Below, one piece after another: positions 2,990-53,741 of a stretch of 64,000 nt of DNA. Positions within the stretch are counted from its first letter, which is position 1, and each line of letters begins with the position of its first letter. Made by a program: the position numbers and the translations under genes. The notes beneath the pieces were generated by a model, which was given only the letters and a program-made list of their open reading frames with translations, was not told where the DNA came from and ran no database searches. Origin of the DNA: Iphione sp. A-MEVVRFRX5 (lineage: Eukaryota); assembly GCA_976226885.1 (NCBI GenBank), contig OZ320316.1, positions 59,210,001-59,274,000 of the forward strand. The letters run 5' to 3'.

Positions 2990-4900
2990 AAAGATGTACA
3001 TTTTACTTCCAAAGGATACATAACTTTATAGTGATAATTATTCTCGTTGTCAGAACAGGACCCTATGGACCAAAACGAAAAAAGATCAACTAGTCCCATG
3101 ACTCTATACAGTAGGTTAGTTTTACTGTTAATTTTTCTCATTATATGCTTATAGAAAGTTGTTAACTTCATTTGTGAGTCCAATCATATGCCAAGATACT
3201 TGTAACCATTAGCTTCTTTTAGGGTGACATTGTTCATCTGCAATGGTAATTGGCCCATCTGGGATGTAGAGATATACACTACAGTTTGAGTTTTCTTAAC
3301 ATTTACCTGTATACTATTGCACTTGTACCACCTGCTTACTACATCCAGCTCTGCTTGTAATTTTGCCTTTAAGTTTCCTATGTTACTATCTGCCATGTAC
3401 AGTACCATATCGTCAGCGTACATAAGTATTTGTGACTCTCTACAGCACTGGGGTAAATCGTTAATAAAGATGGCAAATAGTAGGGGGCCTAGGGTTGATC
3501 CTTGTGGCACCCCACATACAATTTCCCTTTCCATTGAAAAAAAACCATTTAAATTTAACTATTTCTTTCCGGCCACTAAGGTAGTTTTTGAACCATCCTA
3601 ACTCCAAATTCATCCCCAATTTTGACAGATTATGCAGAATAATTTTATGGTTAACCAAGTCAAAAGCTTTTTTACAGTCTATATATACACAGTCTATATA
3701 TACACATTAAATTTTCATTTTCCAGATATGCCATCACTCGTTTAAATACAGCTTGTTCAAGTAGTTTTGCAAATACTGATAATATGCTTATTGGCCTGTA
3801 ATTATTTACACTACTCTTCTCCCCTCCCTTATATATAGGTGTTATTGTTGCCATTTTCCATTCTGCAGGAATTGAGTAGATATGTTACTTCTGTTACCAA
3901 CTCAAAACATAATTTATCTTTGTGTTTATGTTGCATCAATTCTGTGCAGTCTGGTTCCCCCAATTCACGTATTATTTTTGGGCCAACATTTATGAAAAAA
4001 TCATTTATATAATTTGCTGTCTTCACATCATCCATATAAAGACCATCTTCATCTTTGAGCCGTATTGTATGACCAATCTCGCTGCCTACCAGGTTTCTTT
4101 TAACCTCTCTCCAAAAACTCCTGGGATCCTTATGATTATACATCATTTTTGTTATATAGGCCATTTTCTTACTCCTAACCATAATCCAGAATTTATTTGC
4201 ATATCGCTTTGCAGCATTCATATCCTCAATGCTTTTTGTTGTATGTGCTAATGAATATAGACGATTTCGCTCTTTTACCGCCTCTTTGCAGTCATGGTCA
4301 AACCATTGGTGTCCTAGTCTAATTTTTTTCCTAATTTCTTATACGGATATAATCTGTTAACTATCCACTCTACAGAGCATTAAAAGAAACTCCATTTACG
4401 TTCAATATCACCTGTGTCATCATATAGATTATACCAATCAATACACATCAGTGCTTCTTGTAACTTCTTTTTAGAGTAATTTCTAATAAATCTTGCTTGT
4501 GGTAAAAAACTAATTCCCATTGTTCTAACTTCAGTCACAATAGTTACATTAACAGCATAATGATCACTAAATGTTGTTTTAAGTATCCCTGTAGCCACCA
4601 GTTCTGGATGAGATGTTACAACTAAGTCAATAGTGCTTGAGGTGGTTAGCGTTTGTCTTGTAGGGCACTTTACAATCTGCACCAGTCCATATCTTCCCAA
4701 AAATAAATCAAATTCACTCAATTGATGGGCACTCTGCTTCTGTACGTTAATATTAAAATCACCCATCATAACTAGAATACTATTCTTTGACTTGGTTTGC
4801 ATCACCTGATCGAGTAGCTCTAGGAAGATTTTTACACTTACAACAGGTGGTCGGTACAATCCAATTAGGTATAGAGTAACATTATCTTGCAATGTTATTT
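2990..4900 (-). mobile_element. Degenerate CR1-group LINE ORF2 (APE endonuclease + RT) in PPP4R2 intron 2
   Basis: Fragments YRPP, MGDFN, TIDL, SDH (endonuclease); PIYKGG..NYRPISIL, GVPQGSTLGPLLF, YADD, YKYLG (RT); several frameshifts and an internal deletion. Confidence 0.9.
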
Positions 4901-7766
4901 TTAATCCTAAAAGGTCAATGTCACTATGAGCATCAGAGATATATTGTTAACCTATTTCCTCTAGTAACAAATTTTCCCTATGGTAGACCAGTACGCCCCC
5001 CTTTTACTCCTAACAAGCTTCTTCGTCTATCAAGTCTAGATATATTGTATCCACGAATAGTGAGCAAGAAGTTTGCAGTGTGTTTAGCACACAATGGCTG
5101 AAGCGCAGATATCAGAACATACGAACTACTCGAGAATCTCATAAAGAGAATCAAGCTGCTAGAAGAAGGAAGCAGCAAGAAACCAAAGAAGAAAATAGAG
5201 AAGATGACAACAATAGTCACGAGAAGCAAGAAAAAGAAGCAAGACAAGGTAGAGGAGCTGGAAACTGACGGGAAAGAGACGGAGAATGAAGAACAAGACA
5301 ACGAGGACATGCTCACACCAGAACAGCTGAAGGAAGCCTCAGCAACAAACATACAAGAACTCCTCTCAGCAATTTATCCAGACATTGTACCTGCCACAGG
5401 TAAGCAAACAAAAAATCCCAAATCTCCAGCAATGTACGTTCACTTACCAAAGGGCGAGAAGTCTGAATTAGGGAAGCTAACGTTGCATGAATATGTTGCT
5501 GGCACTGTTTCAATGTGTTTGGATAAATCAATCCCTAAAAAGACCCGCACAGACTCCTTCCACACTTGAAACAGGTGACAGAAGAGACGGCAGCGCTTGA
5601 ATGGACCCCCTATGTCTCAGTGGGTGTCAGAACTTTAGGACATTAACACAGGGCAGATAAGTTGGAAGGACGTTCAAAAAATCAATTAAATGAAGAGTAA
5701 AGCAGTGAATGCCATCATATTAGAGAAAAGGAAGAGCGAAGAGCCTGACAAGCAAATTATAGCAGTCTGCATATCATGGCAGACAGGCAAATGCAAAGGC
5801 TGACCACAAACATGAATCAGTCAAACTAATCCATGCATGTTCTTTTTGTCACTGCTTTTATAATAAATCTTTGGAGCACAAGGCAGAACAGTGCAGGCAC
5901 AAGAGGCGCATCAGACGGTTGGACGCCTAAGGCGATTCAAAAAACTACAGGGACAGTCGGAAGACAGGCCGACCAATGAACAACGATGAACCCCCAACCG
6001 TCAAAAACAACAACACACCCAGACAACCGTTACCCACCAGACAACACAAGGAAGGGAGCAGTCAACACTACTAGACGGCCAAACAGACACCGAGATGACT
6101 GTTAGGCATGTGGTGACCAAAGGGAGCAAAACAACCACTGTGTCGTCAATGCTACCAGACGACCCACCCACCCAGACGACCCAGTGCGACAATGACCGAA
6201 AACATGAGGACACAGCTGAGTACTGCACAGAGCTGCTGTACAATGAAGTATGTCACACCGATATAAAGCCAGTCTCAAATATAGCACTTATCCACAGCAG
6301 GGTTACCTCATGGCCAAAATTGTTAAGTACAAATCCACAGCACTTGGTAAAAATATGATTGTGTCGAGGTCAGGATTGCCTAACCACATGGAGTGTAAAA
6401 TACCACTGGTCTCAAATCTAAACGTTCAAAAATGGTATGAAGTAATCGAAGATAGGGCATACATAGATGAAATACTCAGACAAGGCATCATGTATGGTTT
6501 TCAGTTAGGCTACTCCGCTACCGAGGTACCAAATATCAGAGTCCCGCACTATCAATCCGCCAGGTTCAGAAGTTTGTCGGATCCATAAACTTTATAGCAA
6601 GATGTTGTACGCCTGCAAGGCTGTTCGTCTGTGAATTACTGTATGAATACAGAATGGCAACAAGAGGACTGTTAGGGTAACGGGAAGGGTGAAAGATGAC
6701 ATGCAATGGTTTATACCGATGTACACTGGTATTTCATTGTTTGCAGACCAAAAGATCACGGATACAATAAAGGTTGATGCCTGTATTGAGGGCATAGGAG
6801 CCTACTGTGCTGAGGCCTTCTATGCGATGAAAAATATGTATGACCAAAACATGTCAATTTCGAAGCTAGAAGCAGTGGACTTAGCCATAGCAGTTGCAAT
6901 GTTCGGTGCTAGGTAGTTTAAAGGGTGCACAGTGGAAATATGCTCCGATAACATGGCAACAGTGTGGGCAATGTCATCACATCGACCCAGAGACCCTGAA
7001 ATGGCCTCTGCGGTCAGGTTTGTATGGAAAGTAGCAATGGAGTTTAATATGTACCTAAAGTCCACTCACATCTCAGGCAAAGAACTAATCATAACTGATG
7101 CATTATCAAGGCTGTACACTTCTAAGAAGCACTTTGTAATAGTAAACAATTTCCTAAAGCTTAGAAAGAACCTCAAGAAGCTGTTTCCATCGAAAGCATT
7201 ATTCTCAGATGTTCTCAATGCTTAATGTCTACCCACAGATAAACGCCTGAAGGACCTTGCAAGGAGGGCCGCACACAGGCAGAAAGAGGATGTCACCCAG
7301 GAGACACAAAAGAGACAAATTTCAAACATTTTGACATTCCTGGCATTCTATCACTACTATAACATAGAAGTGTACAATAGAACCCCAGATATTTTGGTGT
7401 ATCTAGAATATCTAGTTTATCAGAACTTGTCTCCAAATGTTATTGCACAACACTTGTCCAGTATAATGTAAGCCTTGAGGAGGCTAGGTTGCGCCCCAGA
7501 GGTGTCATTAAGGCTATACACAAAACCACAGAGCATATTGTTGACAGGAAACTTCCAGTATCGATAGAGCATATGGAAAGAACAGTGGTTCATCTCTCTC
7601 AGATGGGTAAATTAGGATTAGTATCAAAGCAGTATTTTCTTTCTTATTCTTTTCACTATTAAGGCAATCTAATGTAGCACCTAAAAGAGTAGATGCATTC
7701 GACCCATCAAAGCAAATATTATGGCAGGACATAGAAATTCTTCCAGATTCTATTAAGGTACTAGTT

Positions 7767-8424
7767 ACACTACTCTTATAAAACGGCTGCCGGAAGTAGG
7801 CTCCATGGATTAGAGTCACTGCGCATGCCTAAAATTAAGCCAGCCAATCACAGAGCTGCTTACAATACTGGTTTGGTTGGAGTTCCCCAGTGATGACGTC
7901 TTGATGAGAAAACCCTAAGATCGGGTTTCAGGCAGCTTGGAGGGAGGGTAGTGGTGGTGACGGCAGCGGCCAGGGCACACTCACACACACAGGCCTGTAG
8001 CCAAGGGGGTATCGGAGGTTTCGTCCAATACCCCCCGTGGACATTAATGCCTATAGATCTTCATTGAGATGACAAAAAATGAGTTCCACCCCTGCTGTAT
8101 TGGGGGTATCGTCCGATACCCCCCATAAAACGTCCNNNNNNNNNNNNNNNNNNNNNNNNNNNNNNNNNNNNNNNNNNNNNNNNNNNNNNNNNNNNNNNNN
8201 NNNNNNNNNNNNNNNNNNNNNNNNNNNNNNNNNNNNNNNNNNNNNNNNNNNNNNNNNNNNNNNNNNNNNNNNNNNNNNNNNNNNNNNNNNNNNNNNNNNA
8301 CCCTGGCGAGAGGGGATGAGTGCAAGTGCACTTCGGTACACTGCACACGCTGCTACCGTAACGAGAGAGAGAGAGTGTGTGTGTGTGCGTGCATGCTCCA
8401 GTGCAAGCGCCGAAGGCGCTTGTT
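7767..8424. mobile_element. Insertion (contains an assembly gap) that splits the YR ORF; ends in a hairpin, possibly Helentron/HINE-like
   Basis: Joining 7766 to 8425 restores GTA CTA GTT AAA TTG TCA AAA ACA = VLVKLSKT. Right end has hairpin CAAGCGCC-GAA-GGCGCTTG (8404-8422) then TT; (CA)n/(GA)n(GT)n tracts inside. Confidence 0.55.
7990..8135. mobile_element. MITE, CAGGCC(T/C)GTAGCCA family, left part (runs into gap)
   Basis: Terminus CAGGCCTGTAGCCAAGGGGGTATCG shared with copies at 29704 and 54749. Confidence 0.75.
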
Positions 8425-8879
8425 AAATTGTCAAAAACAATCAAAAAGAACAGCTCTGGACATATACACATCCCCAAAACAGGCACACCAGCCTGTCCGC
8501 ATGAGGCCCTTACTACCATGCGCAGACTCACACCACGGTTCGCCGAGTATCAGTCGTTATTCACAGATCCATGTACAATGCTCCCATTAACAACACAACA
8601 GATGAGTGATGTACTGGCACTGGTGAATAAACAGTTCGGATTAGACTCAAAGAAGTATTCCTTACACAGTTTTAGACAGGGGGGGGAGGGGGGCTGTGGC
8701 CCTTCAAAGAACAGGTGCCACACTGCAGCAGACAATGGCGCAAGGGACGTGGGTCACACAGTGCTTGTATACACAAAAAGAGAGGAGGATTCATTACAGA
8801 CAGCCAAGATCCTTTGGAAGGCTGCCCAGTCATCAACTGCCTAAAAGAAATGGGCTTAGCACATATAAATCTCTGTTTA

Positions 8880-9240
8880 GGCAAAAAAAAAAAAAATCGG
8901 TGTGTTTCTGGTAACCCAGCCCTTCCTAGTAAAACCTCACCCTACCTTAAAAACTTTGGGCCCCAAAGAGTATTTAAGGCTGAATTTCCTTAGATATGTG
9001 TTTTCATGACACATGTTTTTTGGGTAAATTCAGTAGAAAAACAACAAAATCCATGGAAATTCATAAAAAAAAATTTAAAACTCATACAGACTGTTCAAAA
9101 TTCTTAATATTGTCTTTATTATTGAGAACCAGAGGAAGAAACTGGGAAAAAAATTAAAAAAAAAGGATACCCCCTCCCTACTTAAGTTTTTGGCTTGTTG
9201 TAAGCAGAAACACACCTATTTTTTTTTTTGGGGGGGGGCC
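8880..9240. mobile_element. MITE with GGC...GCC termini and TTA TSD (PIF/Harbinger- or Zator-like)
   Basis: TTA at 8877-8879 and 9241-9243; TIR GGC-A-tract-..GTGTGTTTCTG; same family as 53742-54080. Confidence 0.8.
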
Positions 9241-9967
9241 TTAAAGTTTATCAACAGATGCATATTCTGATGTACATATACTATGTCTTGAAATGATCGA
9301 AAGAGTTGATGTAATAAACCTCTTTGAATGCCAGGAGAAGTCTCGAGTTGTACGTGATATTTCTTTTTATGAGGGCGAAACGTCTTGAGGGTGAACTGGT
9401 TTGAGGGCGAATTGGCGAGGATGGAACGGTTTGAGGGCGTAACGTCGGTATACGTGGCTACTGAACCAATGAGGACTTGTTTTGGCTAGTTTCTAGTATA
9501 GCGGGCCCCATTTGTCTCTGTTCATATAAGGGTTGGTAAGTATATGGTCAAAATTGCATTCATTGATTGAACAAAAGTAGGGTGTGTGTGTGGGGGGGGG
9601 GGGGTCTCCTCCCACTATAAAATTTCTTTAATGTAGGGGGATGTGGGGGGTTTCCCCCACTCTAAGTGGCCGGGGTCCGCTATACTAGAAGTGACCAATT
9701 AAGTTTTAGACTTATTACACTGCTAAGTCTTACTGAACGACCCATCCGTCCTCTCAATCAACTGTTCGGAAGACTGACAACTGCGACTTGTGGAGGCCAG
9801 CGGCAAGCGACCTTGACCTTGCCATGTATAAACAATAAGAGGGACAAACGGGATTCCTTAAATCTTCCTCGTACCTTTACATATAGTAACTCACATTAAC
9901 TGGAAAGATCCTCTGTCAACTATCAATAGTTCAAGACATCCATAATAGCTGTCTGTAACACACTTAC

Positions 9968-11339: not shown

Positions 11340-11452
11340 CTTTAAGTATGGTTGTGAGCGCATGGTCGCCTCACCATCGCCCCAGGTCGAGGCCGCAGGC
11401 CGAGATCGAGGGCGATGGTGAGGCGACCATGGGCAAGCAACCATACTTAAAG
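11340..11452. repeat. Fold-back palindrome / TTAA-flanked mini-element
   Basis: Arms 11340-11354/11438-11452 (15 bp) and 11361-11382/11410-11431 (22 bp) are perfect inverted repeats; core GGCC-GCA-GGCC; TTAA at 11342-11345 and 11447-11450. Confidence 0.8.
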
Positions 11453-13649
11453 TGTGTTCTGGCATGGCTTGGAATCATGAATCAGTAATGAATTAATATT
11501 AACACACCTTTAATTGTCTTTTGAAGCCATTTTAATGAATACTTCATACTGGGCATCATCCTCTCCCAAACAGGAAGTAAACAAACCTCCCTGCAATCTG
11601 ATTGGATGACAAAGGTCACATGATTAACATGGCGCTTTATTTACAAAATGTGAGTGTAATGTCGTTATCCGGTTCCTCCCACCTCATGAATATTAAGTAG
11701 GGAGCAATCCCAGAACTCCATCCAATATGGCTACCACCAACATGTAGTAATAAACATCACCTCTTTGTAACTAAGTTCTCAAGTGATCATTTCATACACA
11801 CACACACAACGAAGACAAGTGTGTACATGTGAAGTTGGGTAAAGATTCAACCTGTCACAGTAATAAACCCTGACCTGAGGTAAGGAAAACTTTGATATTA
11901 TTCCTGTTTAACCTGTGTGCTGTCTAAGAGAAGAAGATTCAGCCAGGTCAGTGATTTTAATTCTCTGTGCAAAGAAGAACTGTATCTGACATTTTATTTT
12001 GATTGAAGTATTGAAAATAAAACTGTCAAGATGAATCCCCAGGTAAATCTTCCAAACTACCCTGAATTCATTGTCACTGATGACCCTGAAATATCTCTGA
12101 AGTGGGAAGAATAGCTGGAAGGATTTGAAGCCATGCTTGCAGCCATGAGAGTGACAGAAGAAAAGGACAAGAGGAACATGATTATGCACTATATAGGGCC
12201 AGCAGCAAGAAAAGTGATCAAGAGGCTGGAGAACACAGGTGGTGAAGCAGAATATGTAGCCTTAAGAAATGCCCTGAATGGTCATTTTAAGCCAAAACTC
12301 AACAGAGTTTACTTGATGAATATGCTCGATCAAGTGCAACAACAGACAGGAGAGTCGATTGACAACTTTCTTGTGCGAGTAAAGGAAAAAGTTGCTGTCA
12401 TTGAGATTGACAAGTTGTCAAAAGAAGAAATCATTGACCTAATAACCTTCTCCCAGATGGTCAACAACTGTGTGAGTAAACATGTGAAAAAGAAGGCGAT
12501 CCGTGATGGTTTGAACTTAAATGATTTTATGCAGACCGCACGTGCAGCAGAGCGAACGGAATTCCAGATGAAGGACTTGGAAGCAGAGTCCACAACAAAT
12601 TCGACTTCCAGTTCAGCCAATGCCGTCACCGATGACAGGATCAGAGGTAGAAAAGCGCATCGTGGCAGATCACGGGGACGATCGCAGAGTCGAGGCCGCT
12701 CCAAGTCACAACACCACAGGAAGGACAAGAAGTGTTTCCGATGTGGAGGATCTTTCCCACATGAAGGTGACTGTCCAGCGAAGACTCAAACCTGTCGGAA
12801 ATGTCAGAGAGTTGGACATTATGAGAAGATGTGTCGCACGAAGACGTCAAAGAAGGGAAGTGTCAACCAAGTCTACAATGACAAATATGTCATGGTGCCC
12901 GCTGTTTCCATTGCATCCGTAGCGAGGCAGAATAAGAAAACAAAGACAGTGACACTACTGATGCATGACGAAGAAGTAGCACTACTGCTGGACACAGGAG
13001 CAGAAATTAACATTATTGGAGAGGAAACATTCCGCACCCTGAAGAACAGACGAAAGGACCTGAAGAGGCCAGACAAGAAATACTGTGGCTACGGACCAGA
13101 AGGTGAGCGAGTCGAGCTGCCTATTCTCGGGTACTTCAGTGAAGTAGTGAAAGCTCCACAAACAATGAAGATGACTCGTGCCGAGATCTATGTTCTAAAA
13201 GTTAAGGTGATGAATTTGCTAAGCTGCAAGACTGCAGAGAAGCTGGGACTAGTGTCATTTGCACACATCTATGAAGTCGGTGCCAACAACGTAGACCAGG
13301 TCGTGGAGGAATATGCGGACAGATTTGAAGGAATCGGGAAGATGAAAGAAGTCCAGTTACATCTAAGCATCAACAAAGAAGTGAAGCCGATAGCTCAGAA
13401 GGCAAGACGAGTACCATTCCATCTGAGAGAGAACGTTGAACAGGAGCTGGAACGTCTGAAAGAGATGGACATCATTGAAGATGCTAAAGGATCAACACCG
13501 TGGATCAGTCCAGTGGTGATCGTACATAAGCCAAATGGCCAGAAGAGGATCTGTCTTGATAGCAGGGCTATCAACACTGCGATCGAGAGGGAGAGACATC
13601 CAATCAGCACACTTGAAGAGCTGATCGTTACGAAAACGACGGGTTTGTT

Positions 13650-13965
13650 GCGCTACCACTTTAGGAATCAAATGTTCCAAAGCTCCTACTGACAGCAGGT
13701 ACATGGACCTCCCTTGAATTTTGAACAGGCATTTCCATTGGCTGTGGGGAGAGTCTGTGCCTTCCCATGATGGCTTGTGGCATGGAATTCTGTGATATTA
13801 ATATGATTGGGTTGCACTGTAAGTGTTTTGTCAGTGTTTTCACTGTGATACAGTTGCACTAAGTGAAAAATAACGATTAGATAAGTTTTTGATGAGTGAG
13901 GTTGAGGTCTCACTATGTAGAATATCACAGAACAGTGGTTTCGACTTTAATGTCTCCTCAGGCGC
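13650..13965 (-). ncRNA. Type I hammerhead ribozyme with a 273-nt insertion in loop III
   Basis: GCGC-CUGAGGA-GAC(AUUAAA)GUC-GAAA-CCACU (13965-13934) and AGUGG-U-A|GCGC (13660-13650): full core, stems I, II and III, GUA cleavage triplet. Confidence 0.75.
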
Positions 13966-14268
13966 TAGATTTCAATTCATTGTCACTCTCAGTGTTTACA
14001 GGTGGTAATATGAATATATAATAGCATTTTATCCGCTTGTTTAAGTGATCCGCTGTCAATATATTTCGCTTCTGCTGATGCCCATGTGGCCAGATTGCTC
14101 ACACCAAATCTAGGAGTTGAATTGGCAATATGGGTTCAGTGGAGTGTGGTAGGACCTAGTGCAGACTATTGAGGCTTCGTGCTACACAGACCATGTGGCG
14201 TGTTGAGATATATCAACAAAGCAATGGACACTCAATAGGTAACGACATGTGATTGTTGATAGCCACGG

Positions 14269-17124
14269 CTAGTCCAAAAGATTCAGGCCACTAGGAAAAA
14301 CCATTTTCAGTCGGTGTATCCAGCGGCGCTCCCTGGTTTCTCGGGCAGTTTTGTATTCCCGAGTTGCCGGATATTTGAGGAATTCCAGCACACTAATTTT
14401 TACGTCCTTCCAGCCCATGGTTGGGTGGGTTGTGGTTTGACTGAAGTGCCTTGCCACTGTTGTGTCCACATTTCTCTTGATGTCGGACTTATGATTCGCA
14501 AATCGCTCGGCAACCGTATTCTGAGTCTGGCCTACATATTGTATGCCGCAACTTTTGCATGTGATCAGATATATCAGATTGTTGCTTTGACAGTTTATAT
14601 TCTGATAGGTTATTATCGTGTCCCCCGTTGATCTAATGTTTGTATTACCAGTGCGGTCCAAGGCGGGACAAATTCTGCAACCTAAGGGATTTTTGCACTT
14701 GTGTCTGTTGATGGTTAATGATGTGATACTTCTGGGCCTATTGTACATCAGTGTATCTAGTGCATTGTCTGGTTTCTTGGGTATGTGTGGTAGTTTTGCA
14801 CGTACAAGATAGTCGGACAAGTTCTTGTTGCGACGTTTTCCGAATATGATTGTACTGTCTTGTAGATGGCGGGTAACTTTCGATTTACCCAAAGTGTCCC
14901 AATGTTTTTGTGTCAGTTCCCTGACTGGAGGGTTGGTAGGGTTGTGGGTGGTGATGTAGTAGAACTTATTCTTTGAGGTGGCAGTATTATTGATACGTTT
15001 TTCTTTCTGGGGTTTGAGGAGATCATCCCTATTTATGTTTGCAACTCGTGATAGGGACGTTAGAATTTCTTTGTCAGGATAACCCCGTCTTATCAAATGA
15101 CCACTCATTTTGATTGTGTTGAGGAGGAATTCCTCTGTGGTGGAGCATATTCTTCGTATTCGTAGGAATTGTGAATATGGGATCGAGTTTAGGCAGCTTT
15201 TTGGATGGCATGAGCTGTACATCAAGTAGTTGTGTGAGTCTGTAGGTTTGGAGTATATAGTGGTCTGTAAAGAACCACAGTTGTCTAGTATCACCTTGGT
15301 GTCTAAGAAGCTTATTTCTTTCGCTGAGTACTCTAGAGTGAATTTGATTGTAGAGTGGACAGAGTTCAAGTGCTGGACAAAGTTTCTAAGGTCAGCCTCT
15401 GAATGTGTCCAGATCATAAAGATGTCGTCAATGTACCTTTTCCACACAAGAGGTTGGAGTGGATAAGTATATACAAATTGTTCTTCAAAATGGCCCATAA
15501 AAAGGTTAGCGTATGATGGAGCCAGTTTCGTGCCCATAGCAGTGCCACCAACTTGTAAGTAGTGTTTGTCGTTAAATGTAAAGTTATTGCAAGTGAGGAC
15601 TAAGTGTAATAGTGTTAATACACTTGTGATAGTCGGATTCAAGTCTGTATTTCTGTGTTTCAATAACATATGTTTTGTGGCTGCGATGCCTTCAGTATTC
15701 CGAATGTTTGTATAAAGGCTGGTCACATCTAGAGTTGCTAGGTAGGCGCCTGGAGGGGCTGCAGAGATGTCTCTCAATATGCACAAGAAATCACTAGTGT
15801 CTTGTACATATGATGGTAGAAGCGGAACTAGGGGATTAATAGTGGTGTCTACTAGTTGGGAGATCTCAGTGGGGCAGTTGTTCGCCGAGACAATCGGTCT
15901 CCCTGGGGGTGGTATTTTACCCTTATGAATTTTTGGTAAAAGATAGAAGTTTGGTGTGCGGTCGTTGCAAGTTGTGAGATATCGTCCGACCTTCTCGCTC
16001 AATTCTTTGTTGTGGACCATATCTTTTACTGTATTGTTGACCACTTTGATATGTTTAGACGTTAAGTCGGAATTAGTTTCTCGATAGAATTTCGGATCAT
16101 TGAGTTGTCTTAGTCCTTCTTTTATATAGTCTTCTCTATTTAGGATAACTGTGGCTCGGCCTTTGTCGGCTTTCTTGATTACAATGCTTTTATTCTGAGA
16201 TAAAGAGCGGATAGCCTTGAACTCAGTTTCTGACAGATTCTTTTTTCTGGGGGGCCTGATGGGGTATTGTTCCAGATCTGATCTGATTTTGAAAAAGGTG
16301 TGCTCAAGTAAGGGCGGTCCCACAGGGTTCCAGTCACTTTTGAGTTTCAGTTTTGGGTTATCGAAAGGTTTAAAATTAGTAGGACTCGAAGTGTCGAGTG
16401 GTCTATTGTCATTGACATGGCAGCCTTCTTTATGGAAAAATATCGACCTTCTTACCGACGTGTGGAAGTGATCTAGGTCCTCTGAGAGTTCATCTAGATC
16501 AGGTCTGCCAGGAGTCGGGACATAATTTAGACCTTTGGAAAGCAAACTGAGTTCAGCACTATCAAGCCTATAATCGGACAAATTTACAACACTGGTTTTG
16601 TTCAACAGGTCTATATTATTATCATTGTTAACATTCAAACAAAACAGGGTTTCAAACATGGCAATATAGGATTCAATATCCAAATCTGGCCAGTACGAAC
16701 AACAATGTGTCAGGTCAGTGTCATATGAAAAATCTTTTTGGTCAGTGTTCTGGCCTTGGCATGTGCTAGAAGAGAAGTTCTTAGTGATCACAGTCTTAAC
16801 TATTTTGTCAACATCAAATAGAGTGGTGATGTCTTTGTCAGATACGTCAGAGCTGAAATTAGAATGAGAGCATAGAACATTAACAGGGCAGTTACCAGAA
16901 TAGTCATTGGCCCACGAAGCTACTTCTTTGCGGATGAGCCCAGGATTTGGCCCATCATCCGTTTGAGTTCCTCGAATTCCCTCACGGTTGCCTGAGTGCG
17001 TCTGCGTGAGTTCCGCTGTCCCTCGCGTGGGGGTCTGCCCGCGTCGTCTTGTCGCCTGCGCTTGGACGATTTCCGATCGCAATGGGTGTTGTCCCTGGAG
17101 CGGGACCTGGACCTGGGGCGACGA
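14269..17124 (-). CDS. PLE RT + Cys-rich linker + GIY-YIG endonuclease (open frame; first in-frame ATG 16659)
   Basis: VVNLS..LSKGLNYVPTP, KADKG, LDVTSLYTNI, GTAMG..APSYANLFM, RYIDD; linker CKNPLGCRIC; LIYLITCKSCGIQYVGQT; no internal stop. Confidence 0.93.
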   Translation of the reverse strand, partial: SSPQVQVPLQGQHPLRSEIVQAQATRRRGQTPTRGTAELTQTHSGNREGIRGTQTDDGPNPGLIRKEVASWANDYSGNCPVNVLCSHSNFSSDVSDKDITTLFDVDKIVKTVITKNFSSSTCQGQNTDQKDFSYDTDLTHCCSYWPDLDIESYIAMFETLFCLNVNNDNNIDLLNKTSVVNLSDYRLDSAELSLLSKGLNYVPTPGRPDLDELSEDLDHFHTSVRRSIFFHKEGCHVNDNRPLDTSSPTNFKPFDNPKLKLKSDWNPVGPPLLEHTFFKIRSDLEQYPIRPPRKKNLSETEFKAIRSLSQNKSIVIKKADKGRATVILNREDYIKEGLRQLNDPKFYRETNSDLTSKHIKVVNNTVKDMVHNKELSEKVGRYLTTCNDRTPNFYLLPKIHKGKIPPPGRPIVSANNCPTEISQLVDTTINPLVPLLPSYVQDTSDFLCILRDISAAPPGAYLATLDVTSLYTNIRNTEGIAATKHMLLKHRNTDLNPTITSVLTLLHLVLTCNNFTFNDKHYLQVGGTAMGTKLAPSYANLFMGHFEEQFVYTYPLQPLVWKRYIDDIFMIWTHSEADLRNFVQHLNSVHSTIKFTLEYSAKEISFLDTKVILDNCGSLQTTIYSKPTDSHNYLMYSSCHPKSCLNSIPYSQFLRIRRICSTTEEFLLNTIKMSGHLIRRGYPDKEILTSLSRVANINRDDLLKPQKEKRINNTATSKNKFYYITTHNPTNPPVRELTQKHWDTLGKSKVTRHLQDSTIIFGKRRNKNLSDYLVRAKLPHIPKKPDNALDTLMYNRPRSITSLTINRHKCKNPLGCRICPALDRTGNTNIRSTGDTIITYQNINCQSNNLIYLITCKSCGIQYVGQTQNTVAERFANHKSDIKRNVDTTVARHFSQTTTHPTMGWKDVKISVLEFLKYPATREYKTARETRERRWIHRLKMVFPSGLNLLD

Positions 17125-20100
17125 GCGAATCATAAGTCCGACATCAAGAGAAATGTGGACACAACAGTGGCAAGGCACTTCAGTCAAACCACAACCCACC
17201 CAACCATGGGCTGGAAGGACGTAAAAATTAGTGTGCTGGAATTCCTCAAATATCCGGCAACTCGGGAATACAAAACTGCCCGAGAAACCAGGGAGCGCCA
17301 CTGGATACACCGATTGAAAACGGTTTTTCCTAGTGGCCTGAATCTTTTGGACTAGCCGTGGCTATCAACAATCACATATGTCGTTACCTATGAAGAGCTG
17401 ATCGTTGAGATGAATGGAGCTCAGATTTTCTCCAAAATAGATCTCAACAAGGGTTACCATCAACTAGAGCTGGCAGAAGAGAGTCGCTACATCACCACGT
17501 TTGCAACGCATCAAGGACTCTACCGTTACAAACGACTGTGTTTCGGTATCAACTCTGCAGCCGAGATCTTCCAGAAAGCAGTCTCAGACATGTTACAAGG
17601 AATCAGTGGAGTGAAGAACGTGTCAGATGACATCATCATATATTCGAAGACACTGGAAGAACATCAGAAGACAGTCAAGGCGGTCCTGCAGCGCATGAGA
17701 GAAAACAACGTGACTGCTAACAAGGACAAATGCGAATTCTGCAAAGATGAAATTCAGTTTTTCGGACATGTTTTCTCCAAAGATGGTATCTCTCCAAGCG
17801 AAGATAAGATTTCTGCAGTGACCAGTCCAAGCCCTCCTCAGAATGCAGAAGAAGTCCGAAGTCTCCTCGGGATGGCACAGTATGTTGCAAGATTCATCCC
17901 AAATTACAGCATAACAGTTGCACCATTGAGACTCCTCACTCGAAAAGATGAGCCATGGAGATGGGGACAGGAGGAGATGAAAGCGTTTGAAGCACTGAAG
18001 GACAGCATGACAAATTGGAAGATGATCAGATATTTTGACATCAAACTTAAGACAGAACTAATCGTGGATGCTAGCCCATTTGGATTGGGAGCAATTTTGA
18101 CTCAGAAGACAGCAGATGATGAGAGTCGAGTGATCGAGTATGCAAGTCGAGCATTGACAGACACAGAGTCAAGGTACAGCCAAACAGAAAGAGAAGCACT
18201 TGGGATAGTGTGGGGCTGCGAACACTTCAATCACTACCTCCTAGGGGCAGACTTAAAGGTGATCACGGATCACAAGCCCTTGGAAGGCATCATGAATAAG
18301 CCGATGTCGAAGCCAACAGCCAGGCTTCAGAGACTGTGTCTACGCCTACAGCCGTACAAGTTGACAGTTGTCTATCAACCCGGAAAGTCAAACCCTGCTG
18401 ACTACCTGTCCAGACACCCGAAGAAGGATGATGAAGCATGTGATCCATCATGGCTGGACCTGCAAACAGAACAAGTCAGCATACATGCAGTACAATATTA
18501 TAGCATGCATGGAAGACACAGTATCTCCAGAGAAGAACTCGAGAAAGAGACAGCCAAAGATGAAGTCCTGCAGCGAGTTATGCAATGTATCGCATCACAA
18601 AGATGGCATGAGTTGGATGTGACTTATCAGCCATACAGGAGGCTGAAAGAAGAAATGTCGGTATGTGATGGCTTGATATTGAAAGGGGACAGAGTCGTTC
18701 TACCAAAGAGCCTGCAACAGAGAGCAGTTGACGTCGCCCACTCAAGTCATCAAGGCATAGTGAAGACCAAGTCGTTGCTGCGTGAAACTGTCTGGTTCCC
18801 AGGAATAGACAAGCTGGTAGAAACCACAGTAGCCAACTGTCTCCCATGCCAGTCGGCAACTCTGAAGGTTGAGAGAGAACCGCTGCATGCCACAGAATTA
18901 CCGAAGAATCCGTGGACAGAAGTTTCTGTTGACTTCTGTGGACCTTTCAAGAGTGGAGAGTATCTGCTAGTAGTCATCGATGACTTACAGTCGCTTCCCT
19001 GAAGTGGAAATTGTGACCTTGACGTCAGCAACAGCAGTCATTCCAAGGCTTGACGCAATATTTGCCCGTCAAGGAATACCACTGACTGTCAAGTCTGACA
19101 ATGGACCGCCCTTCAACGGTGAAGACTTTGCAATGTGGGCCAGGTATGTGGGCTTCACTCACAGAAAAATCACACCCTTATGGCCACAGGCTAATGGAGA
19201 GGCGGAACGATTTACGAGGATGCTGGGAAAGGCAATACATGCCGCAATGATTGACAAAGGAAGCTGGAAGCAAGAGCTCTACACCTTCCTCCGGCACTAC
19301 AGAGCTACTCCACACAGCACGACAGGCATGTCTCCATCTGAAATGCTAAATGGAAGAAAGCTGAGAACAGAAGTGCCCATGAAGACGACAAAGAAGCAAG
19401 TCAGATTTCAAGACCAGGTGGAACTGGCAAGAAGGAAGGATGAGAGACTGAAGGGGCACATGAAGGAGCTCGCCGACAAGCGTCATCAGGCAAAAGAAAA
19501 TAACCTGGAAGTCAGAGACCGAGTTCTCGTGAGACAGCCAAGAGTGGACAAGCTGTCAACACCGTACAAGCCTGCACCATATGAGGTCATCAAGAAGAAT
19601 GGCAGCTTGATCACAGCAAGACAAGGTGATCATGTCATAACAAGAAATTCATCCTACATGAAGAGGATTGACAGACAGTGTGGTGACATGGGACCCACTG
19701 ATTCAGAGCTGGAAGCGCTCTTAGACGATCTGTCACCCTGCGATCAGAGCGAGACTAACACTGGCACTGATGTAACTGATGTGCCTACACAACATGCATC
19801 AAATTCACCCAAGCCGAGTGATGTCAGTTCCTGACGAGTGTCAGCAAGGACTAGGAGAACACCTAGTCACTTGAAAGACTTTATTGTATGGAAGTGAGTG
19901 CTGAGGACTCACTATGGGAGTGAAGTGCTAGTAACTGTTCTTCCCCAGATTAAATTCGAATATTGAAAAGTAAAGCTTGTTTATAAGCTAGAGTCACCAA
20001 AGAGACACTATGAACACATCTATTCATGAACATTCATTTAAAAGAGACTATCTTAAGCAAATGGTTTAAGAGCTTAAAGATATAGTTTGTTTCAAAAGAA

Positions 20101-37961: not shown

Positions 37962-38732
37962 ATAGTTTAGTTCTATTAGACAATATATACGGATCCTTTA
38001 ACATGATGTAATAAGAAGTCAAAAAAGTACAGTGGGTTATATGTTGGACTTTGAATTAGAAAAAGTGGGTGCAAAGGTAGAACTTTTCCAAAAACATTTT
38101 GTGTAGGGTTCAGGAAGGGTTTCCTTATGTTTCACAGCAAGGTTCTATAAAGTTTAAAAGAGGTTCACCTTATAACATTTTATCAACGCTATTTCACAAT
38201 GTTCACCAAACCAAATGTAGTGTCGGCCACTCCGTAAATAAGACATGACCAGGAAGTACAAACCAAGGATCTTTATTACTGAGACAATTGAAGACAGAAG
38301 TTCACAGTATGGCTCCCTGCCCTGAACTGAACTGAGAGGGCTCCAGCTCCTGCTTTTATAGGCTGGAGCCCCCAGCGGTGCATTGTGCAACATTGCACGA
38401 TGCGTCCAACGCAGGTGCACGAAGCACAAGGCACAAAGCACGAGGCGACACTGCAACACTGCACTCTGCGCTGAAAGCATCAATGCACAGTGCACAGTGC
38501 CACCTCGCACAATGCAACCTTGCACCGTGCAACGTTGCCACATAACACCGCTACACTGCTCCCTCCCAAGAATCAACTTTGTCCCCAAAGTTCAAACACT
38601 GCAACACAGTCCAACACGTAACGCGCAACGAAAAAGTCCAGGCACGCCAGGGTCGTCAGCTATCTCCGCGCACCCAAGTCCAAAGCAATTCCATCGCGTT
38701 CCAGTCCGGTCCGGTCTGCATCCCACCATTCC

Positions 38733-41321
38733 TTATCGTAGCCGCACCACGAATGTTTCCTTCATCTCGGCCACTACCTCCTCCCCTTCCTGGCAGTCAG
38801 CCCAGGAGGTAAACCGGCGGAACGCCCACCCTCGGGTCAGGTTCCCGGGCCGGCGGGCGTGCCAGCTCATCAGGTCACACGGGGGAGCCTCCCCTGATGG
38901 CCAGAAGCGGATGGACTGCACCAGGTGTACCTTAACCTCATGGTGGCCGGCCAGCTGTACTTCTGCAGTGCTGGAGGTGCCCACAATGTGCCACCCCACT
39001 GGCGGGGCGGACTGTCGGGACACGTGCAGAGTGGTCACCCAATGATACACGGCGTCAGGTATTCCCTCGTCCTCGGAGGCGGGGGGGGAGACATCTTCAT
39101 AGGTCCACCGGTAGGCGTAACGTGGCCCACCGGGGCGTCGTGGAGGGGTGCCTCGGGGGCTGCCCGTCGCGGCCAAGCCTCTACCTCAGGGCGCCGCGGG
39201 GTTAACTCGGGCCACTGGGGAGAGCGCGCCCTGCTCCTGTCGACGGCCCAGTGGCTGAGGGGGACGGCCCGCTAGGCCAGCCCCGCCGGGTGCTGGTACT
39301 GGTCGTTCGGGCTCCGGGGGCACCGGTAGGGGCCCCACAGCGTCCGGCTGGTCCTCTGGTGGCGGTGGTGGTGGTGGTGGTGGTGGGGACACCCGGGCCC
39401 CATCTGTTGGGGGGGTCACTCCCACGAGGCTGAGAGTGGCGACTCCCGAGACCGTCGGTTCACCGCGGCCCTCTTCCGAAGAGTCTGTCGCCTCCCCCGG
39501 CCCGCGGGGGGCCCCCTCCTGTGGGCGGTCGTGCGGTGGGTCATCTGGCCGCTCCTCTGGCTCACGACCGGCGTGGGTGGTCTGAGCGCCCCCGGCTTCG
39601 TCAGTCGGCCCTGCTGGAGGCCGATGTGGGCCGAGGTCCTCGTCTGTTGGCGGCGGTCGGGGCCCCGTGTCCTCCTCCTCGCCCAGCGGGGCGGGTGCCG
39701 CCCCTGACCCTGAGGACTCACCCAGTCCTCCTGCTTCGTCCTCGGGCGGCCCTTCTGACCACTCCTCGGTGTTCTCCTGAGTGGAGATGTCCTCCAGCGG
39801 GGGAACATCCGAGCCCCGACGCGCCACCGTAGAATCGGCGGTCAGGGCCGCCAACTCCTCCTCCTCCACTGTGGCGGTACGTGCCGCCACCCCGGGCCTT
39901 GCTCCGGTGTCGGAGAGCCCTGAGCTCTCCTCCTCTAACCACACCACCTCCCCTAGGGTGGCGGCCATGGCCCGCTGCAGAGTGTCGGGTTCTCCAGCCT
40001 GGGGCGTAGGGTGAGCCTTCTTCTGCCCCAGCGGGGGGGAGGCCCCCGGCGAGTCCTCAAGGACCACCACAGGCCCACTTTCCGTCGCCCTCTCCCAGCC
40101 AGGGCCCAGCCTGCGATCCAGCTGCGTCTCCTCCTCCTCCGCCGTCCGGCTCACCTTCGCCGGGGTATGGCTGCGCCCCGCGGGCCCTCGGCGACCGGGT
40201 GTCCGGGCGCGGGCGGGGCTGGTCCACCAGCCCTTCCTCTGAGGAGGAAGTCGGCATCCGGCCCAACCCCCGGCGCCGTGGGTGGCGGAAGGATGCGCGC
40301 CCTCGCAGGGACACGCCTCCGGGCACAAGGGGTGACGACTCAGCGGCGTCCTCTTAGTCTGACCAGGCCGGCCGCTCTGGTGATGGTTCCCGTGGAGCTG
40401 GCGGCGGCGCTGGGGGTGTTCCGGCCCGCCCCCCCTGGAAAAGCTGCCGGCGGTGGGGCTCCGCCGGGGTTCCCTCCAGGTTGATGCCAGCAGGGGTGGG
40501 CACCAACGGCGCGGTGCGGGCACACGAGGAGCTCGGGGTGCCCTGGGGCTTGGCCCTTTCGTAGGTCCGGGCAGGCGCTCCCCAATGAGGGGGAGAAGAC
40601 GAGGAGCTTCCCGATGGCATGCCGGTGTGAGAAGGGGCTGACGTTCCCGACCCAGGTGTCTCCGACGGGGTGTGGGGGCCCCACCCGAGCGGTGCCTCGT
40701 CCAACAGGGGGGTGCCCGGGTCCTGTGGTGGATTGGCCTCCCGTGGCGTGGGGGGGGGGTCTCCGGGTCCGCAGAGTCTCCTCTCGGGGGAGGGGGCGAA
40801 TCTGCCCGGTCGGCGGGGCCCGCGGGTGCAGGCTCCACGGGGCCAGGGCCCGGGGGCACGGCCACAGGCAGGCCCGCAGGTGGGAGGTCATCCCCCGAGT
40901 CCTGTTCCGTTTCCCCTCGCTCCTGTCTCTGAGCAATCCAGTTCAGTAAGGTCCCGCCGCCGCGTCCTCTCGTCCTGCCGCTTCCGGCGGTCGTACTCTG
41001 CCTGCCGCTCCGGCGGGCAGGGCAGCACCACCCCAAATGTCGGGTTATAACCCGAGAATCGGAGCAGCTCCACGCCTGTGGAGTGTGCCACCCGCTCGGA
41101 GCCATGCACCTTCACCGCGTGCCGCTTCCAATCGGCCCTACGCTTGAAGGCGGTCATCTGGGGAACGGACACAGCCAGCCAAAACCGACGACTTGGTGGG
41201 TGGCTGCGATGTGCTCGTACATTCCCTCCAGCTCGGTGAATTCCTTCCCGCACACCTGGCAGGGGAAGGGGGGGCCGTCGGGGGCGTCCGAGGTGCTAGG
41301 AGTCGGGTCACGTTCAGCCAT
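38733..41321 (-). pseudogene. Element A accessory ORF (~860 codons): two C2H2 fingers, P/E/S-rich linker, C-terminal globular domain
   Basis: GGT-ATG-G at 41321; FPCQVCGKEFTELEGMYEHIAATH; WLCPFP[frameshift]MTAFKRRADWKRHAVKVH; further frameshifts; in-frame TGA 39188-39186; final 147-aa domain ends about 165 nt before the PPT. Confidence 0.78.
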
Positions 41322-41547
41322 ACCGCTCTCGGGGTGCGGGACGGTCCGGTGGCGTTGGTAGCAGGTGGGGACGAGGTTGCGCAGAATGTCCTGGCACTGT
41401 TCGCTAGTGCGTCGATCGCAGGTGCGTCGACCGTGGCTGCGGCGACTGTCAGTGCGGCCAACGTCGAGGCCCCGATGCACGTAGTGTTCACCGTACGTGC
41501 GCCAAACGTTATTGGCGCGTCGAGTGCCTGTGGAAACAAGGCAGACA

Positions 41548-41810
41548 TCAGCACAAGGTGTTTCTGCTACAGCGCGAATGTGGCTCAACCTCTCTACCGG
41601 CGAGCAAACGACTCCCTTACAATTGCCGCCCACGCATTCAACTCCCAGTATTTCGCCGCCAGGACAGGCCGCAGGGTCAGCGCAGAGTGTTCCTGCTACC
41701 GCGCAAAGGTGGCTCGGCCTTTTTACTGGCGAGCAGACAGCTTCCTCACAACGGTTGCTCACACGCTCAACCCTCGGTATTTCGCCGCCAGTACAGGCCG
41801 CGCAGCTGCC
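41548..41810. repeat. 129-bp tandem duplication (two diverged copies)
   Basis: Units start at 41548 and 41677. Confidence 0.8.
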
Positions 41811-42199
41811 ATAGTGGTCCGGCACCCTTATTCTCGTACGATCAACGCAGCTACTTTCCTGGCTGCAGCTTACATTGTACTCTCGACTATCGCGCACCCA
41901 AGTCTCGCGGCTACAAAGCTGGCTTCTGCTAACCTTGCGGCCCCTATTATCGCTCGTAGCTGGTACAAGTGTTGCACATGATAAGATGCCTACCTGGCTT
42001 CGTACCGTCCGAGCGGGATAGTCCATGACGCCCTGGCGTTCAGTGCAGCAGCGTGCCTTGCGCTGAGACATTGCACCCTTGGTCGTCGTGCGATGCTTTT
42101 GTCTCCGTCGGTCGCTCTGACTGCAATGGCACGAGGTCTGCATGTGAGAGACGCGGTCGCGGGTGGTGCTGCCTCATTTCCAGTGGCTTAGATCAGCGA

Positions 42200-42475
42200 G
42201 GTTACGCTGGGCGGCGCCACGTGCTGGCGAAGAGTGCGCCTACAGTGCTTGCCTCGACGCATCGGCGGAATTACGCTGGGTGGCGCCACGGGCTGGTAGA
42301 AGGTGTGCTCGCGCTGCTCGCATCGACGCAGCTTCGTTTCCCGGCCCGTGGTGAGGTGAAGAGCGTGCCTGCAGTGCTCGCCTCGACGCATCGGCGGAGT
42401 TACGCCGGGTGGCGCCACGGGCTGGTAGAGAGCGCACTTGCGCTGCTTGCATTGACGCAGCTTCGTTCCCAGCCA
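42200..42475. repeat. 129-bp tandem repeat at the integrase C-terminus (43-aa repeat NEAASM...)
   Basis: CCTCGACGCATCGGCGGA at 42252 and 42381. Confidence 0.85.
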
Positions 42476-45400
42476 TGACGTTCAGCGCAGTCGCCATCCC
42501 CGCACCCGCGAGGGTGGTCCGGCAGACCTGGCTGGCGCAAGTCACCTGGGGATCCTCTTTGGCTGGCTTGAGTCGGTCCGCATGGACGACCCTCCTCTTG
42601 GGTCCCTTGCCGATTCGATAGGTGACTGCTGAAAGCTTCTCCTCTACTTGCCAGGGCCCTTCCCACCAGTCCTGGAACTTGTGAGGGACTCCCCGGCGGC
42701 GGAGTGGTGAAAACAACCAGACCCTTTGTCCGACCGCATACTCCTGTGGCCTGACTTTCTGGTTGTACCAGTCGCGTCTGTGTTCAGTCACCCGGTTTAA
42801 GTGCTGCGCTACCCTCTGATGAGCCTGCTGGACCTCGTCCTCCACCTGGCTAGCGTACTGGTTCCGCTGCACCACGCTGGGCTCAGGGTATCCGTACCGG
42901 AGTTCCACCGGCAAGTTGACCTCCCGATGGAACATGAGCCGATTGGGCGACATATTGGTCGACCCTTGCGGCGTAGCCCGGTATGCGGCCATCACATAGG
43001 GGAGGGCCAAATCCCAGTCAGCTCTCCGTTCTTCTCCCAGGGTACCCAGCATATTAGCCAGCGTCCGGTTGAAGCGCTCGACCACGCCGTCGCTTTGGGG
43101 GTGATATGGTGTAGTTCGAGATTTTTCTATTCCCAGGATGTGGAGCACCTCTGTGAACAGGTCGGAGTGGAACACTCGGGGGGGGCCAAACCAACATATG
43201 ACCTCTCGCACTATGACTTCAGCGGATGCTTTGGCGGTCGCTTCTGCCAGAGGAAACGCCTCCGTCCACTTGGAGAAGTGGTCCGCCACCACCAGAACGT
43301 ACCGATTTCCCCGCGGGGTCTCCGGCAGAGGCCCCAGTATGTCGGCAGCCACTAACTCCCAAGGCTCGCTCACCGGCCGGGACTGCAGCGGTGCTCGCCG
43401 GGAGCGGGGCGGCGCCTTACGCCGCTGGCACACCTGACATGCGGCCGTCCAGCGCCCCACATCGCGGCGCATCCCTGGCCAGAACCACTTCTGCCGCAAT
43501 AATCCGAGGGTTTTCTCGGCGCCCAGGTGGCCTCCCAGTGTGCCTGCGTGTACATCCTGCCACAGGTCAGCTCGCAGTACGCGGGGGACGTAGGCCTGGT
43601 ACACCGCCTGCCCGCCGTCTGCTTCCCAGCGCCGCATCAGCACCCCGCCCCTCAAGGACAACCAGCCGACTTCCGCCTGCAGCTGGCGCTCCTCCCATGG
43701 CAGCCCAACCTCCAGTCCCGGGGGGTCGTCTCCCGCCGCCAAGGCTTGCCGGATCGCCTCCGTGCCTTCCTCTGCCGCCTGCACCTTACTTAGCTGCTCG
43801 GAGCTTGCCGGCGGGGTCGCCGCCACCGCGGCTACTTCCGCGACTTCGGGGGCCATCTCCCTGGTGCACTGCTTACACTGCTGCCGCAACAGGCCATCCG
43901 CGTTCCCGTGCTTCCGCCCCGGCCGGTGGATGATCTCCAAATCATGGCAGAAGATTTCCTCCAGCAAGCGGGCCAGTTGTCCCTGTGGCTCACGGAAACT
44001 GCAAAGCCACCGCAGCGAGTCGTGGTCGGTCCGGATCTCGACGCTCCGCCCCCCACGTAGCAGCGGAATTTACGCAGGGCGAACACTACGGCCAGCAGTT
44101 CTCGCCATGTCACTCAGTAGTTCCGCTCTGGCTTGGTGAGGGTCCGGCTCGCATAAGCCAAGACCCTCTCTTGCCCGTCCTGGATCTGGGACAGCACTGC
44201 CCCGATGCCGGTGTCGGAGGCGTCTGTGTCCAGCAACAGCCTTCCTTGCGGGCAGGGGTAGCCCAGGATCGGTGCTGAACACAGCTGCTGCTTCAGGTGG
44301 TCGAAGGCCTGCTGGCACTCCCCCGTCCAGGCGAACTCCGCCAGCCGATCTGCCATGGCATGGAGGGGGGCCGCGATCCGGGCGAAGCCCTCCACGAAGC
44401 TCCGGTAATATGAGCATAGGCCGAGGAACCCACGTAACTCCTCCCCACAGCGCGGTGGAGGCCAGGCGGCCACGGCGGCGATCTTCTCTGGGTCCACCCC
44501 GACGCCGCGGGCCGACACCAGATGACCCAGGTACGCCACCTCCTCCTGAAACAGCTGACACTTCGAGGCCTTCACTCGCAGCCCGGCCTGCTGCAGACGG
44601 TCGAAGACTCGCCCCAGGCGGTCGCACATCTCCTCCACTGTGCGGCCTAGCACAATGATATCATCCAGGTACACGAGACAGTCCGTGCCCACCATGCCCC
44701 GCAGCACGGACTCCATGAGGCGCTCGAAGGTCGACGGCGCATTGCACAACCCGAAGGGCATCACCCGGAACTGGTATAGCCCTCCAGGAGTGCACACGGC
44801 CGTCTTCTCCGCATCAGCAGGGTCCATTCTGACCTGCCAGTAGCCACTGGCCAAGTCAATGGCAGAAAAATAGCGGTTCCCCTGCAACGCATCCAGGGTG
44901 TCGTCGATGTGAGGCAGGGGATATGCGTCCTTCTTTGTTACCGCATTCAATCGCCGATAGTCGATACAGAAACGGGTGCTCCCGTCCTTCTTTTTGACCA
45001 GAACCAGGGGAGAAGCCCACGGGCTGGTGGAGTGTTCCAGTACTCCCTTCTCCAACATCGCCTCCACCTCTCGCTCCACCTCCGCTTTTCGGTGGGGAGG
45101 TAGGCGCCGCGCCCTCTGGCGGATGGGGGCGTGCCCTTGCGTATCGATTCGATGCTGGACCACGGGGGTGCACCCCAGGGGGCCGCTCGGGGTCTGGAAG
45201 ACGTCGTAGTGTGCCCCCAGCATCGCCCGGATTTTGGCTCGGTCATCGTGCGACAGTCCTTCTGGTAGTTGGTCCAGCAGCTGTCTTACTGCCTCCCATT
45301 GCTCAGCCTCTACAGTCCCAGCCGGCGCTGCGTAGGCGGTCACCACGTCGCTCACCACATGGCCGGTTCCGAACTGCGTACCGCGGAAGACGCAAGCCGC

Positions 45401-53640: not shown

Positions 53641-53741
53641 ATCTACCAGTCCTACTGCAAGACCCCCAAAACCCCCAGAGGATAGGCTCTGTTCTATTTG
53701 CAACAACGGTAGTGTGGAAAATGAAGTCCATTTCCTAATAA

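Follow-up and report, generated by a model that had tools for sequence, protein, structure and literature searches.

A decayed copy of an Ngaro-type retrotransposon lies at positions 5094 to 9359 on the forward strand of the window, by which we mean the whole 64,000-nucleotide stretch of Iphione sp. DNA that was analyzed, and remnants of gag, RT/RNase H (pol) and a tyrosine recombinase gene (YR) can be recognized within it. The copy carries stops and frameshifts, part of RT is missing, and there are insertions within and 3′ of YR. Its nearest sister, the best DNA match in the genome, is only 70% identical in nucleotides. A Pfam search of the fragments of this copy gave no match.

The gag start codon of the family (M-A-E, with M1 and A2 invariant in 29 intact Gag proteins) is found at 5094 to 5096, where in this copy it is out of frame with downstream gag. 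The segment from there to 5399 is the coding part of the predicted exon 1 and encodes an N-terminal Gag leader with a predicted helix, a basic stretch, an acidic tract and helices ending in a YP motif. The exon ends at a consensus donor in phase 1, CAG/GTAAGC (5397 to 5405, exon end 5399), as the initial annotation had proposed, and the GTAAG at 5399/5400 is the only one between 5094 and 7225. That annotation started gag at the ATG at 5204 to 5206, which placed the donor in codon 66 behind a 65-residue leader. This is not the family start, as the leaders of 57 intact families begin 100 to 113 codons before the donor; with the start at 5094, the donor falls at about codon 103 to 105 and the leader is about 105 residues long.

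The predicted intron (5400 to 7238) holds the remainder of gag and RT/RNase H, and its exact loss was seen in relatives. It is 1,839 nt long here, compared with a median of 2,437 nt at 142 loci. Within it are the decayed 3′ part of gag (5400 to 5985), with stops and frameshifts, and a decayed pol (5990 to 7225) that has no methyltransferase, lacks about 750 nt near 6536 to 6564 and ends in TAA (7223 to 7225). A slippery heptamer, A AAA AAC, lies in the gag frame at 5939 to 5945 and is a likely site of −1 frameshifting into pol. The pol stop is followed by a pyrimidine-rich spacer and the acceptor CAG/AT (7226 to 7240), and the reported layout was recovered exactly: the spacer is 13 nt long and ends in CAG at 7238, and exon 2 starts at 7239 in phase 1.

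The 5′ part of YR (7239 to 7766), covering the core-binding domain and the beginning of the catalytic domain, is broken by a stop at 7469 to 7471 and by frameshifts. An unrelated repeat of family D12 is inserted behind it (7767 to 8412, including masked N at 8137 to 8299), and the 3′ part of YR with the H-x-x-R motif region follows at 8413 to 8844, ending in a stop at 8842 to 8844. A repeat survey of the window identified a short element with terminal inverted repeats, I7, 3′ of YR at 8886 to 9229. The copy ends in a B repeat remnant (9254 to 9359, end GTGATA) that is 75 to 78% identical to the B repeats of two relatives, L021 and L095; A1, A2 and a second B repeat were not seen at this copy. 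LINE fragments encoding endonuclease and RT (3184 to 4946, reverse strand) adjoin the 5′ end of the element, where A1 is absent.

YR had been described as lacking an ATG, and indeed no in-frame ATG precedes codon 81, just ahead of the premature stop. The claim that splicing would give an open fusion of Gag and YR held at the junction, where the fused frame is open, but in the window copy the frame continues only to the stop at 7469 to 7471. Because the window copy is decayed, the fusion could not be made from it, and the question was therefore put to its relatives. The mechanism considered below is read from those relatives, and the window copy itself is a fossil.

Related elements and their splice signals

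The window and 200 stretches around YR or junction matches, all from one genome, gave 201 loci in 152 families (defined at 80% nucleotide identity). The stretches were taken as 20, then 120 from a listing of 150 matches and 60 chosen from further searches, and since only the best-scoring candidates were included they are a sample of the copies in the genome. Sixty short loci from DNA searches were excluded from the counts, and some of them were used in parent checks. Related families are 35 to 65% identical to one another in amino acids. The genome holds very many low-copy Ngaro families, as the 152 families in 201 loci indicate, and many copies are intact with repeats 98 to 100% identical; gag, pol and YR are all open in 37 of the first 140 loci. 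We conclude that Ngaro diversity is high in this genome and that activity has been recent.

The elements fit Ngaro, an assignment made by repeats, ORF order and absence of a methyltransferase. Ngaro elements, as defined in the available sections of PMC9210276, PMC8547959 and PMC4157794 (which describe Goodwin and Poulter 2004), have the structure A1-[gag, RT/RH, YR]-B1A2B2, no methyltransferase, and the domains PF00078 and PF00589. Here, 100 of 140 full-type loci have both pairs of split repeats, and 97 have them in the order A1-B1-A2-B2; gag, RT/RH and YR follow one another on one strand; both Pfam domains are present; pol ends 41 to 42 residues past the D-x-LSR RNase H motif at 112 of 118 loci; and no methyltransferase Pfam match after RNase H was found in the elements. 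The absent methyltransferase domain speaks against a PAT-like assignment, although derivatives of PAT that lack the methyltransferase are described in the part of PMC4157794 available. The elements are not DIRS1-like, as their ends are direct split repeats rather than inverted repeats with an internal complementary region and there is no methyltransferase, nor are they VIPER-like, as YR lies 3′ of RT/RH rather than in the order gag, YR, RT/RH given in the accessible portion of PMC6681497. An ORF for an SGNH hydrolase was not seen in the elements. Outside this genome, pol queries matched at 29 to 39% identity with no named reference among the matches, the fusion query matched YR domains only (about 25 to 36% identity, with the best stretches ending short of the leader), and a Gag alignment gave no match; none of the fusion, pol and Gag queries found a close relative of the elements in other genomes.

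The donor is conserved across these families. The G/GT is kept at 141 of 143 loci with a mappable donor region (among 183 loci not classed as joined, with a spacing one codon shorter allowed), and the two misses are one deletion copy and one mutated copy. With one locus counted per family, the donor is present in 109 of 111, with A at −2 in 106 and A/A/G at +3/+4/+5 in 107, 106 and 109. As the donor site encodes Gly-Lys, synonymous controls matter. The Gly codon is GGT in 109/109 families, compared with a background of 24% elsewhere in gag, and the Lys codon is AAG in 103/103 (background 62%). Moreover, A is the third base of the fourfold-degenerate codon before the donor in 86 of 90 cases (background 33%), although ten different amino acids occur at this residue. 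At conserved Gly and Lys residues 15 to 25 codons further downstream, all synonymous codons occur with roughly equal frequency, which indicates that synonymous sites are otherwise saturated. We conclude that the homologous donor sites are near-invariant across families, as the initial annotation had asked to be checked, and that this is far beyond chance, with the caution that families share ancestry and binomial P values overstate their independence.

The acceptor is conserved as well. An AG is found at the first YR codon at 172 of 176 pol-bearing loci and in 129 of 133 families, with C at −3 in 124, and a pyrimidine tract lies 5′ of it. A branch-like YTRAY occurs 8 to 35 nt upstream of the acceptor in 66 of 123 families, compared with 23, 4 and 3 in control windows. 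The elements thus carry the signals of a U2 spliceosomal intron, namely a GT donor consensus, a YAG acceptor, a pyrimidine tract and a branch site that is enriched though not universal. The reading phase (phase 1 to phase 1) is kept throughout, and the proposed acceptor and phase both held up when followed across families.

Expression of pol appears to follow another route. In 49 of 50 intact families pol lies in the −1 frame overlapping gag. Of 74 families that have the homologous motif, 73 retain A AAA AAC, which is found 13 to 14 codons before the gag stop. The heptamer is absent from the 12 intact families of a divergent clade (L201 to L240). There, pol is still in the −1 frame, gag mostly ends in TGG-stop, and the distance from the pol stop to the acceptor is often only 6 nt; inspection by eye established no second acceptor for Pol in that clade.

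Intron-less copies and the Gag leader

Twenty genomic copies join the 5′ part of Gag directly to YR. Eighteen were classed by rule and belong to 18 different families, and two were classed by eye. One of the copies, L032, was found unprompted and has a single 453-codon frame of the Gag 5′ part and YR between complete repeats. The main cautions are nucleotides shared by donor and acceptor and the enrichment by targeted searches: 17 of the 20 came from junction-spanning protein queries, which enrich for such joins. The YR-based survey of 140 loci, which was unbiased in this respect, contained 3 exact joins, compared with 7 other deletions of at least 150 nt, all at different places. In 18 of 20 copies, 7 codons separate the join from the Pro of the YP motif upstream of it; the distance is 6 codons in one copy, and the motif is mutated in the remaining one. 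AG precedes the join in 18, two copies being without it. The whole fused frame is open (430 to 460 codons) in 10 copies.

Six intron-less copies were compared with parents at 75 to 98% identity (14 of the 20 were outside this comparison), and all six lack exactly GT...AG. The pairs are L073 with L111 (98%), L171 with L201 (98%), L032 with L041 and L042 (88 to 90%), L164 (80 to 86%), L043 with L176 (78%) and L168 (75 to 77%). In four of the six, the child carries the donor-side base, so that the overlap is only AG. In a tree of 139 YR proteins with at least 200 open codons, the distribution of the 12 joined tips requires 10 label changes. Moreover, 8 of the 20 copies keep both repeat pairs (96 to 100% identical) and end in the element's own repeats. 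Processed pseudogenes made by a LINE were rejected on this last ground and because no A-run of 10 or more was present in 13 of 13 copies inspected. The simplest reading of these sequences is that spliced RNA has probably been retrotransposed repeatedly by the element's own machinery.

Some fused copies have long branches, and domestication was considered for these; it was rejected for L164 and L168 in view of their ordinary parents. L174 (G000:C22:7541000-7546500) is intron-less, has an open frame of 436 codons and sits on a very long branch, and the sample contains no relative; it is either an unsampled family or an older retained gene. Several elements (L162, L164, L170, L173, L174, L222 and the window copy at 9254 to 9359) apparently stop after one B repeat, perhaps as a result of recombination between B1 and B2.

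In the 57 intact families, the leader is 100 to 113 residues long. It opens with a predicted helix, continues through a basic stretch and then an acidic tract, and has two predicted helices adjoining YR. The basic Gag leader of the initial annotation is therefore correct as to the basic stretch, a putative NLS, but the leader is longer and also includes helices and an acidic tract. AlphaFold modeled the natural fused ORF of L032 with a pLDDT of 87; helices 2-26 and 90-108 were of high confidence (pLDDT above 90 for 90-108) and the middle was disordered. The predicted fold resembles that of Cre and related tyrosine recombinases (PDB 1ma7, 5u91), and unlike in Cre, the N terminus of YR here would come from a separate exon that is common to Gag. 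In predicted models, YR folds well without the leader and matches Cre as well or better alone (Z 22.9, rmsd 3.3, 286 aligned) than as the fusion (Z 20.9, rmsd 3.1, 276 aligned). The structural match starts at Cre residues 20 to 24 with the leader and at 28 to 32 without it, and across Cre, lambda Int, Tn1549 Int, XerH, XerA and IntI the leader moves the start of the alignment 8 to 15 residues earlier. These starts give a hint, to be taken only as a lead, that the last Gag helix may fill the first-helix position of the core-binding domain; the hint comes from where aligned ranges end in predicted models. Against it, in a sequence profile the first helix of the YR exon itself aligns with the first helix of Cre, at the start of the folded region.

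Probable spliced expression of YR and rival explanations

Conserved splice signals and 20 copies that lack exactly the intron lead us to conclude that this Ngaro-type family very probably makes YR from a spliced RNA, in which the first ~105 Gag codons would be joined in frame to an ATG-less YR exon. The Gag-leader::YR splice first proposed from the window alone is thereby supported for the family by donor, acceptor and phase conservation together with the intron-less copies. Unspliced RNA would give Gag and, in the main clade, Gag-Pol through −1 frameshifting at A AAA AAC, and would also serve as template, while spliced RNA would give Gag-leader::YR. Because the spliced RNA would keep the A and B repeats, it could occasionally be reverse transcribed in trans and integrated as a non-autonomous copy of about 2 kb. 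The leader is predicted to provide YR with its start codon and a patch of basic residues. The first leader helix may link YR to Gag particles, and the last may take the position of the first core-binding-domain helix.

Two other explanations concern how YR is translated. YR could be made as a Pol-YR fusion by −1 frameshifting or stop readthrough at the pol/YR border, with the splice-like motifs incidental. Poulter and Butler (2015) put forward a frameshift for Ngaro, as quoted in section 17 of PMC13003380, part of which was available. In the window copy, pol and YR share a frame with a single TAA between them, and 35 of 123 families have a −1 pol/YR overlap of at least 7 nt. However, the spacer from the pol stop to the acceptor varies from 6 to 40 nt, so that YR floats in all three frames relative to pol (0/+1/−1 in 33/37/53 of 123 families), and only 1 of the 35 overlaps has a slippery heptamer, compared with the 73 of 74 at gag-pol. 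Another 35 of the 123 families have no usable overlap, and readthrough was rejected as stop contexts are heterogeneous where YR is in frame. Such a fusion would also leave the frozen donor codons and the intron-less copies unexplained, and we consider it very improbable. Splicing could instead be real but regulatory, reducing full-length RNA or bringing YR nearer the cap, with reinitiation or leaky scanning starting YR at an AUG of its own and the leader having no function on the enzyme. Consistent with this, YR folds without the leader, some Met is present in the short open stretch upstream of YR in 21 of 133 families, and ATGA occurs at the pol stop in 33 of 123. Stop-start reinitiation was rejected, however, as that ATGA shares the YR frame in just 9 of the 33 families, a number below expectation, and among 83 intact YRs the position of the first Met varies between codons 4 and 219. 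The maintained phase and the 10 open fused frames also argue against an own AUG, which we regard as improbable, if slightly less so than the Pol-YR fusion. Among relatives, then, no conserved Met, ATG or slippery frameshift into YR was found of the kind that would have provided an alternative to splicing.

The intron-less copies might instead have arisen by DNA-level deletion or RT template switching at a short shared AG or CAG. The exon end at the donor and the acceptor do have 2 to 3 nt in common in 86 of 104 families, and the 7 other deletions in the 140-locus survey indicate that internal loss occurs. But those deletions scatter, whereas the joins of 18 families all fall at one homologous codon, and an overlap of 2 nt is available hundreds of times in 2.4 kb. 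Moreover, bases on the intron side (+1 to +5 and the pyrimidine tract) are also conserved, and these have no bearing on microhomology. Of the explanations weighed here, this one seems to us the most remote. A splice that joins the Gag leader to YR remains the preferred reading.

Splicing for a 3′ gene has precedents. Retroviruses use unspliced RNA for Gag and Gag-Pol and for packaging, and make spliced RNAs for 3′ genes, such as the subgenomic env mRNA and the spliced pol mRNA of foamy viruses; in some, a donor inside gag adds Gag codons. The division proposed here is alike, and differs from the retroviral one in that the spliced product would be the integrating enzyme with about a third of Gag, and in that there are no LTRs and no env. 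In Ty1 and Copia, splicing yields Gag, whereas the splice here would remove RT/RH and yield the recombinase. The spliced subgenomic gag RNAs of Ty1 and Copia, as treated in the available parts of PMC5580714 and PMC3735527, are likewise a case of a retrotransposon balancing its proteins by splicing. L1 SpIREs, in the available part of PMC5860796, are also spliced element RNAs that were retrotransposed and left DNA evidence of splicing; unlike SpIREs, the splice here appears to be strongly selected for across families, and the resulting fusion is open and looks functional.

In the literature covered, which lay outside the 2004 paper by Goodwin and Poulter, the one from 2015 by Poulter and Butler, Repbase notes and supplements, we found no description of a spliced YR in Ngaro or DIRS elements. 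None is mentioned in the sections available of PMC7192593, PMC9341512, PMC6681497, PMC9940879, PMC3950715, PMC4157794, PMC3537659, PMC12477816, PMC13465315, PMC12440569 and PMC13003380, and no word beginning with "splic" occurs in PMC9210276, PMC3783388, PMC3266345 and PMC8547959. The conserved GT-AG intron over the 3′ half of gag and pol, the Gag-leader::YR and the intron-less copies are thus additions to the accounts of Ngaro, as far as the portions available extend. PMC13003380, in the section available, quotes Poulter and Butler (2015) for translation of YR probably by frameshift, and a −1 YR/pol overlap, which is a proposed expression route and not a classifying feature, is not general here (35/123). 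In fungal Ngaro elements of all groups, according to the available part of PMC3783388, the YR ORF can be in frame or frameshifted, which a splice would explain.

For expression of the third ORF of YR retrotransposons, where the review position is a probable frameshift, a splice would be a different answer. It predicts a junction for more than 100 families and would define the real N terminus of the recombinase, which is needed in biochemistry or engineering of eukaryotic YRs. It would also represent a retrovirus-like RNA economy, with a frameshift for Pol and a splice for the 3′ gene, in a group not bounded by LTRs, and would identify the ~2-kb gag::YR copies, which would otherwise be wrongly annotated as deletion debris or as genes of the host. 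More speculatively, and with the balance of our judgment somewhat against it, splicing from a Gag exon could be the general and ancient Ngaro route to YR, the Gag exon completing the DNA-binding domain and coupling the recombinase to the particle, and the spliced retrocopies could be a distinct class of RT-less YR donors. If so, every annotated Ngaro YR ORF would be an incomplete second exon.

Other elements are present in the window. A second, distantly related Ngaro element on the reverse strand (50231 to 53780) has pol and an open YR (51861 to 50891), B repeats at 50231 to 50453 and 50652 to 50874 (96% identical), and a gag end replaced by an inverted-repeat element (53738 to 54084). Its acceptor layout is the same, with TGA, 10 nt and CAG/AT at 51862/51861. 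A Penelope-like element (14247 to 17377, reverse strand) with an RT and GIY-YIG ORF of 1,030 residues between 260-nt inverted repeats is inserted in a Gypsy-type element (12115 to 19834). A GC-rich (60 to 73%) LTR retrotransposon occupies 38214 to 48186 on the reverse strand, with 300-nt direct repeats at 98% identity, protease/RT/RH/integrase and two further ORFs at 39186 to 42173. Finally, a long near-perfect hairpin with 55-nt arms and a 3-nt loop is found at 11340 to 11452.
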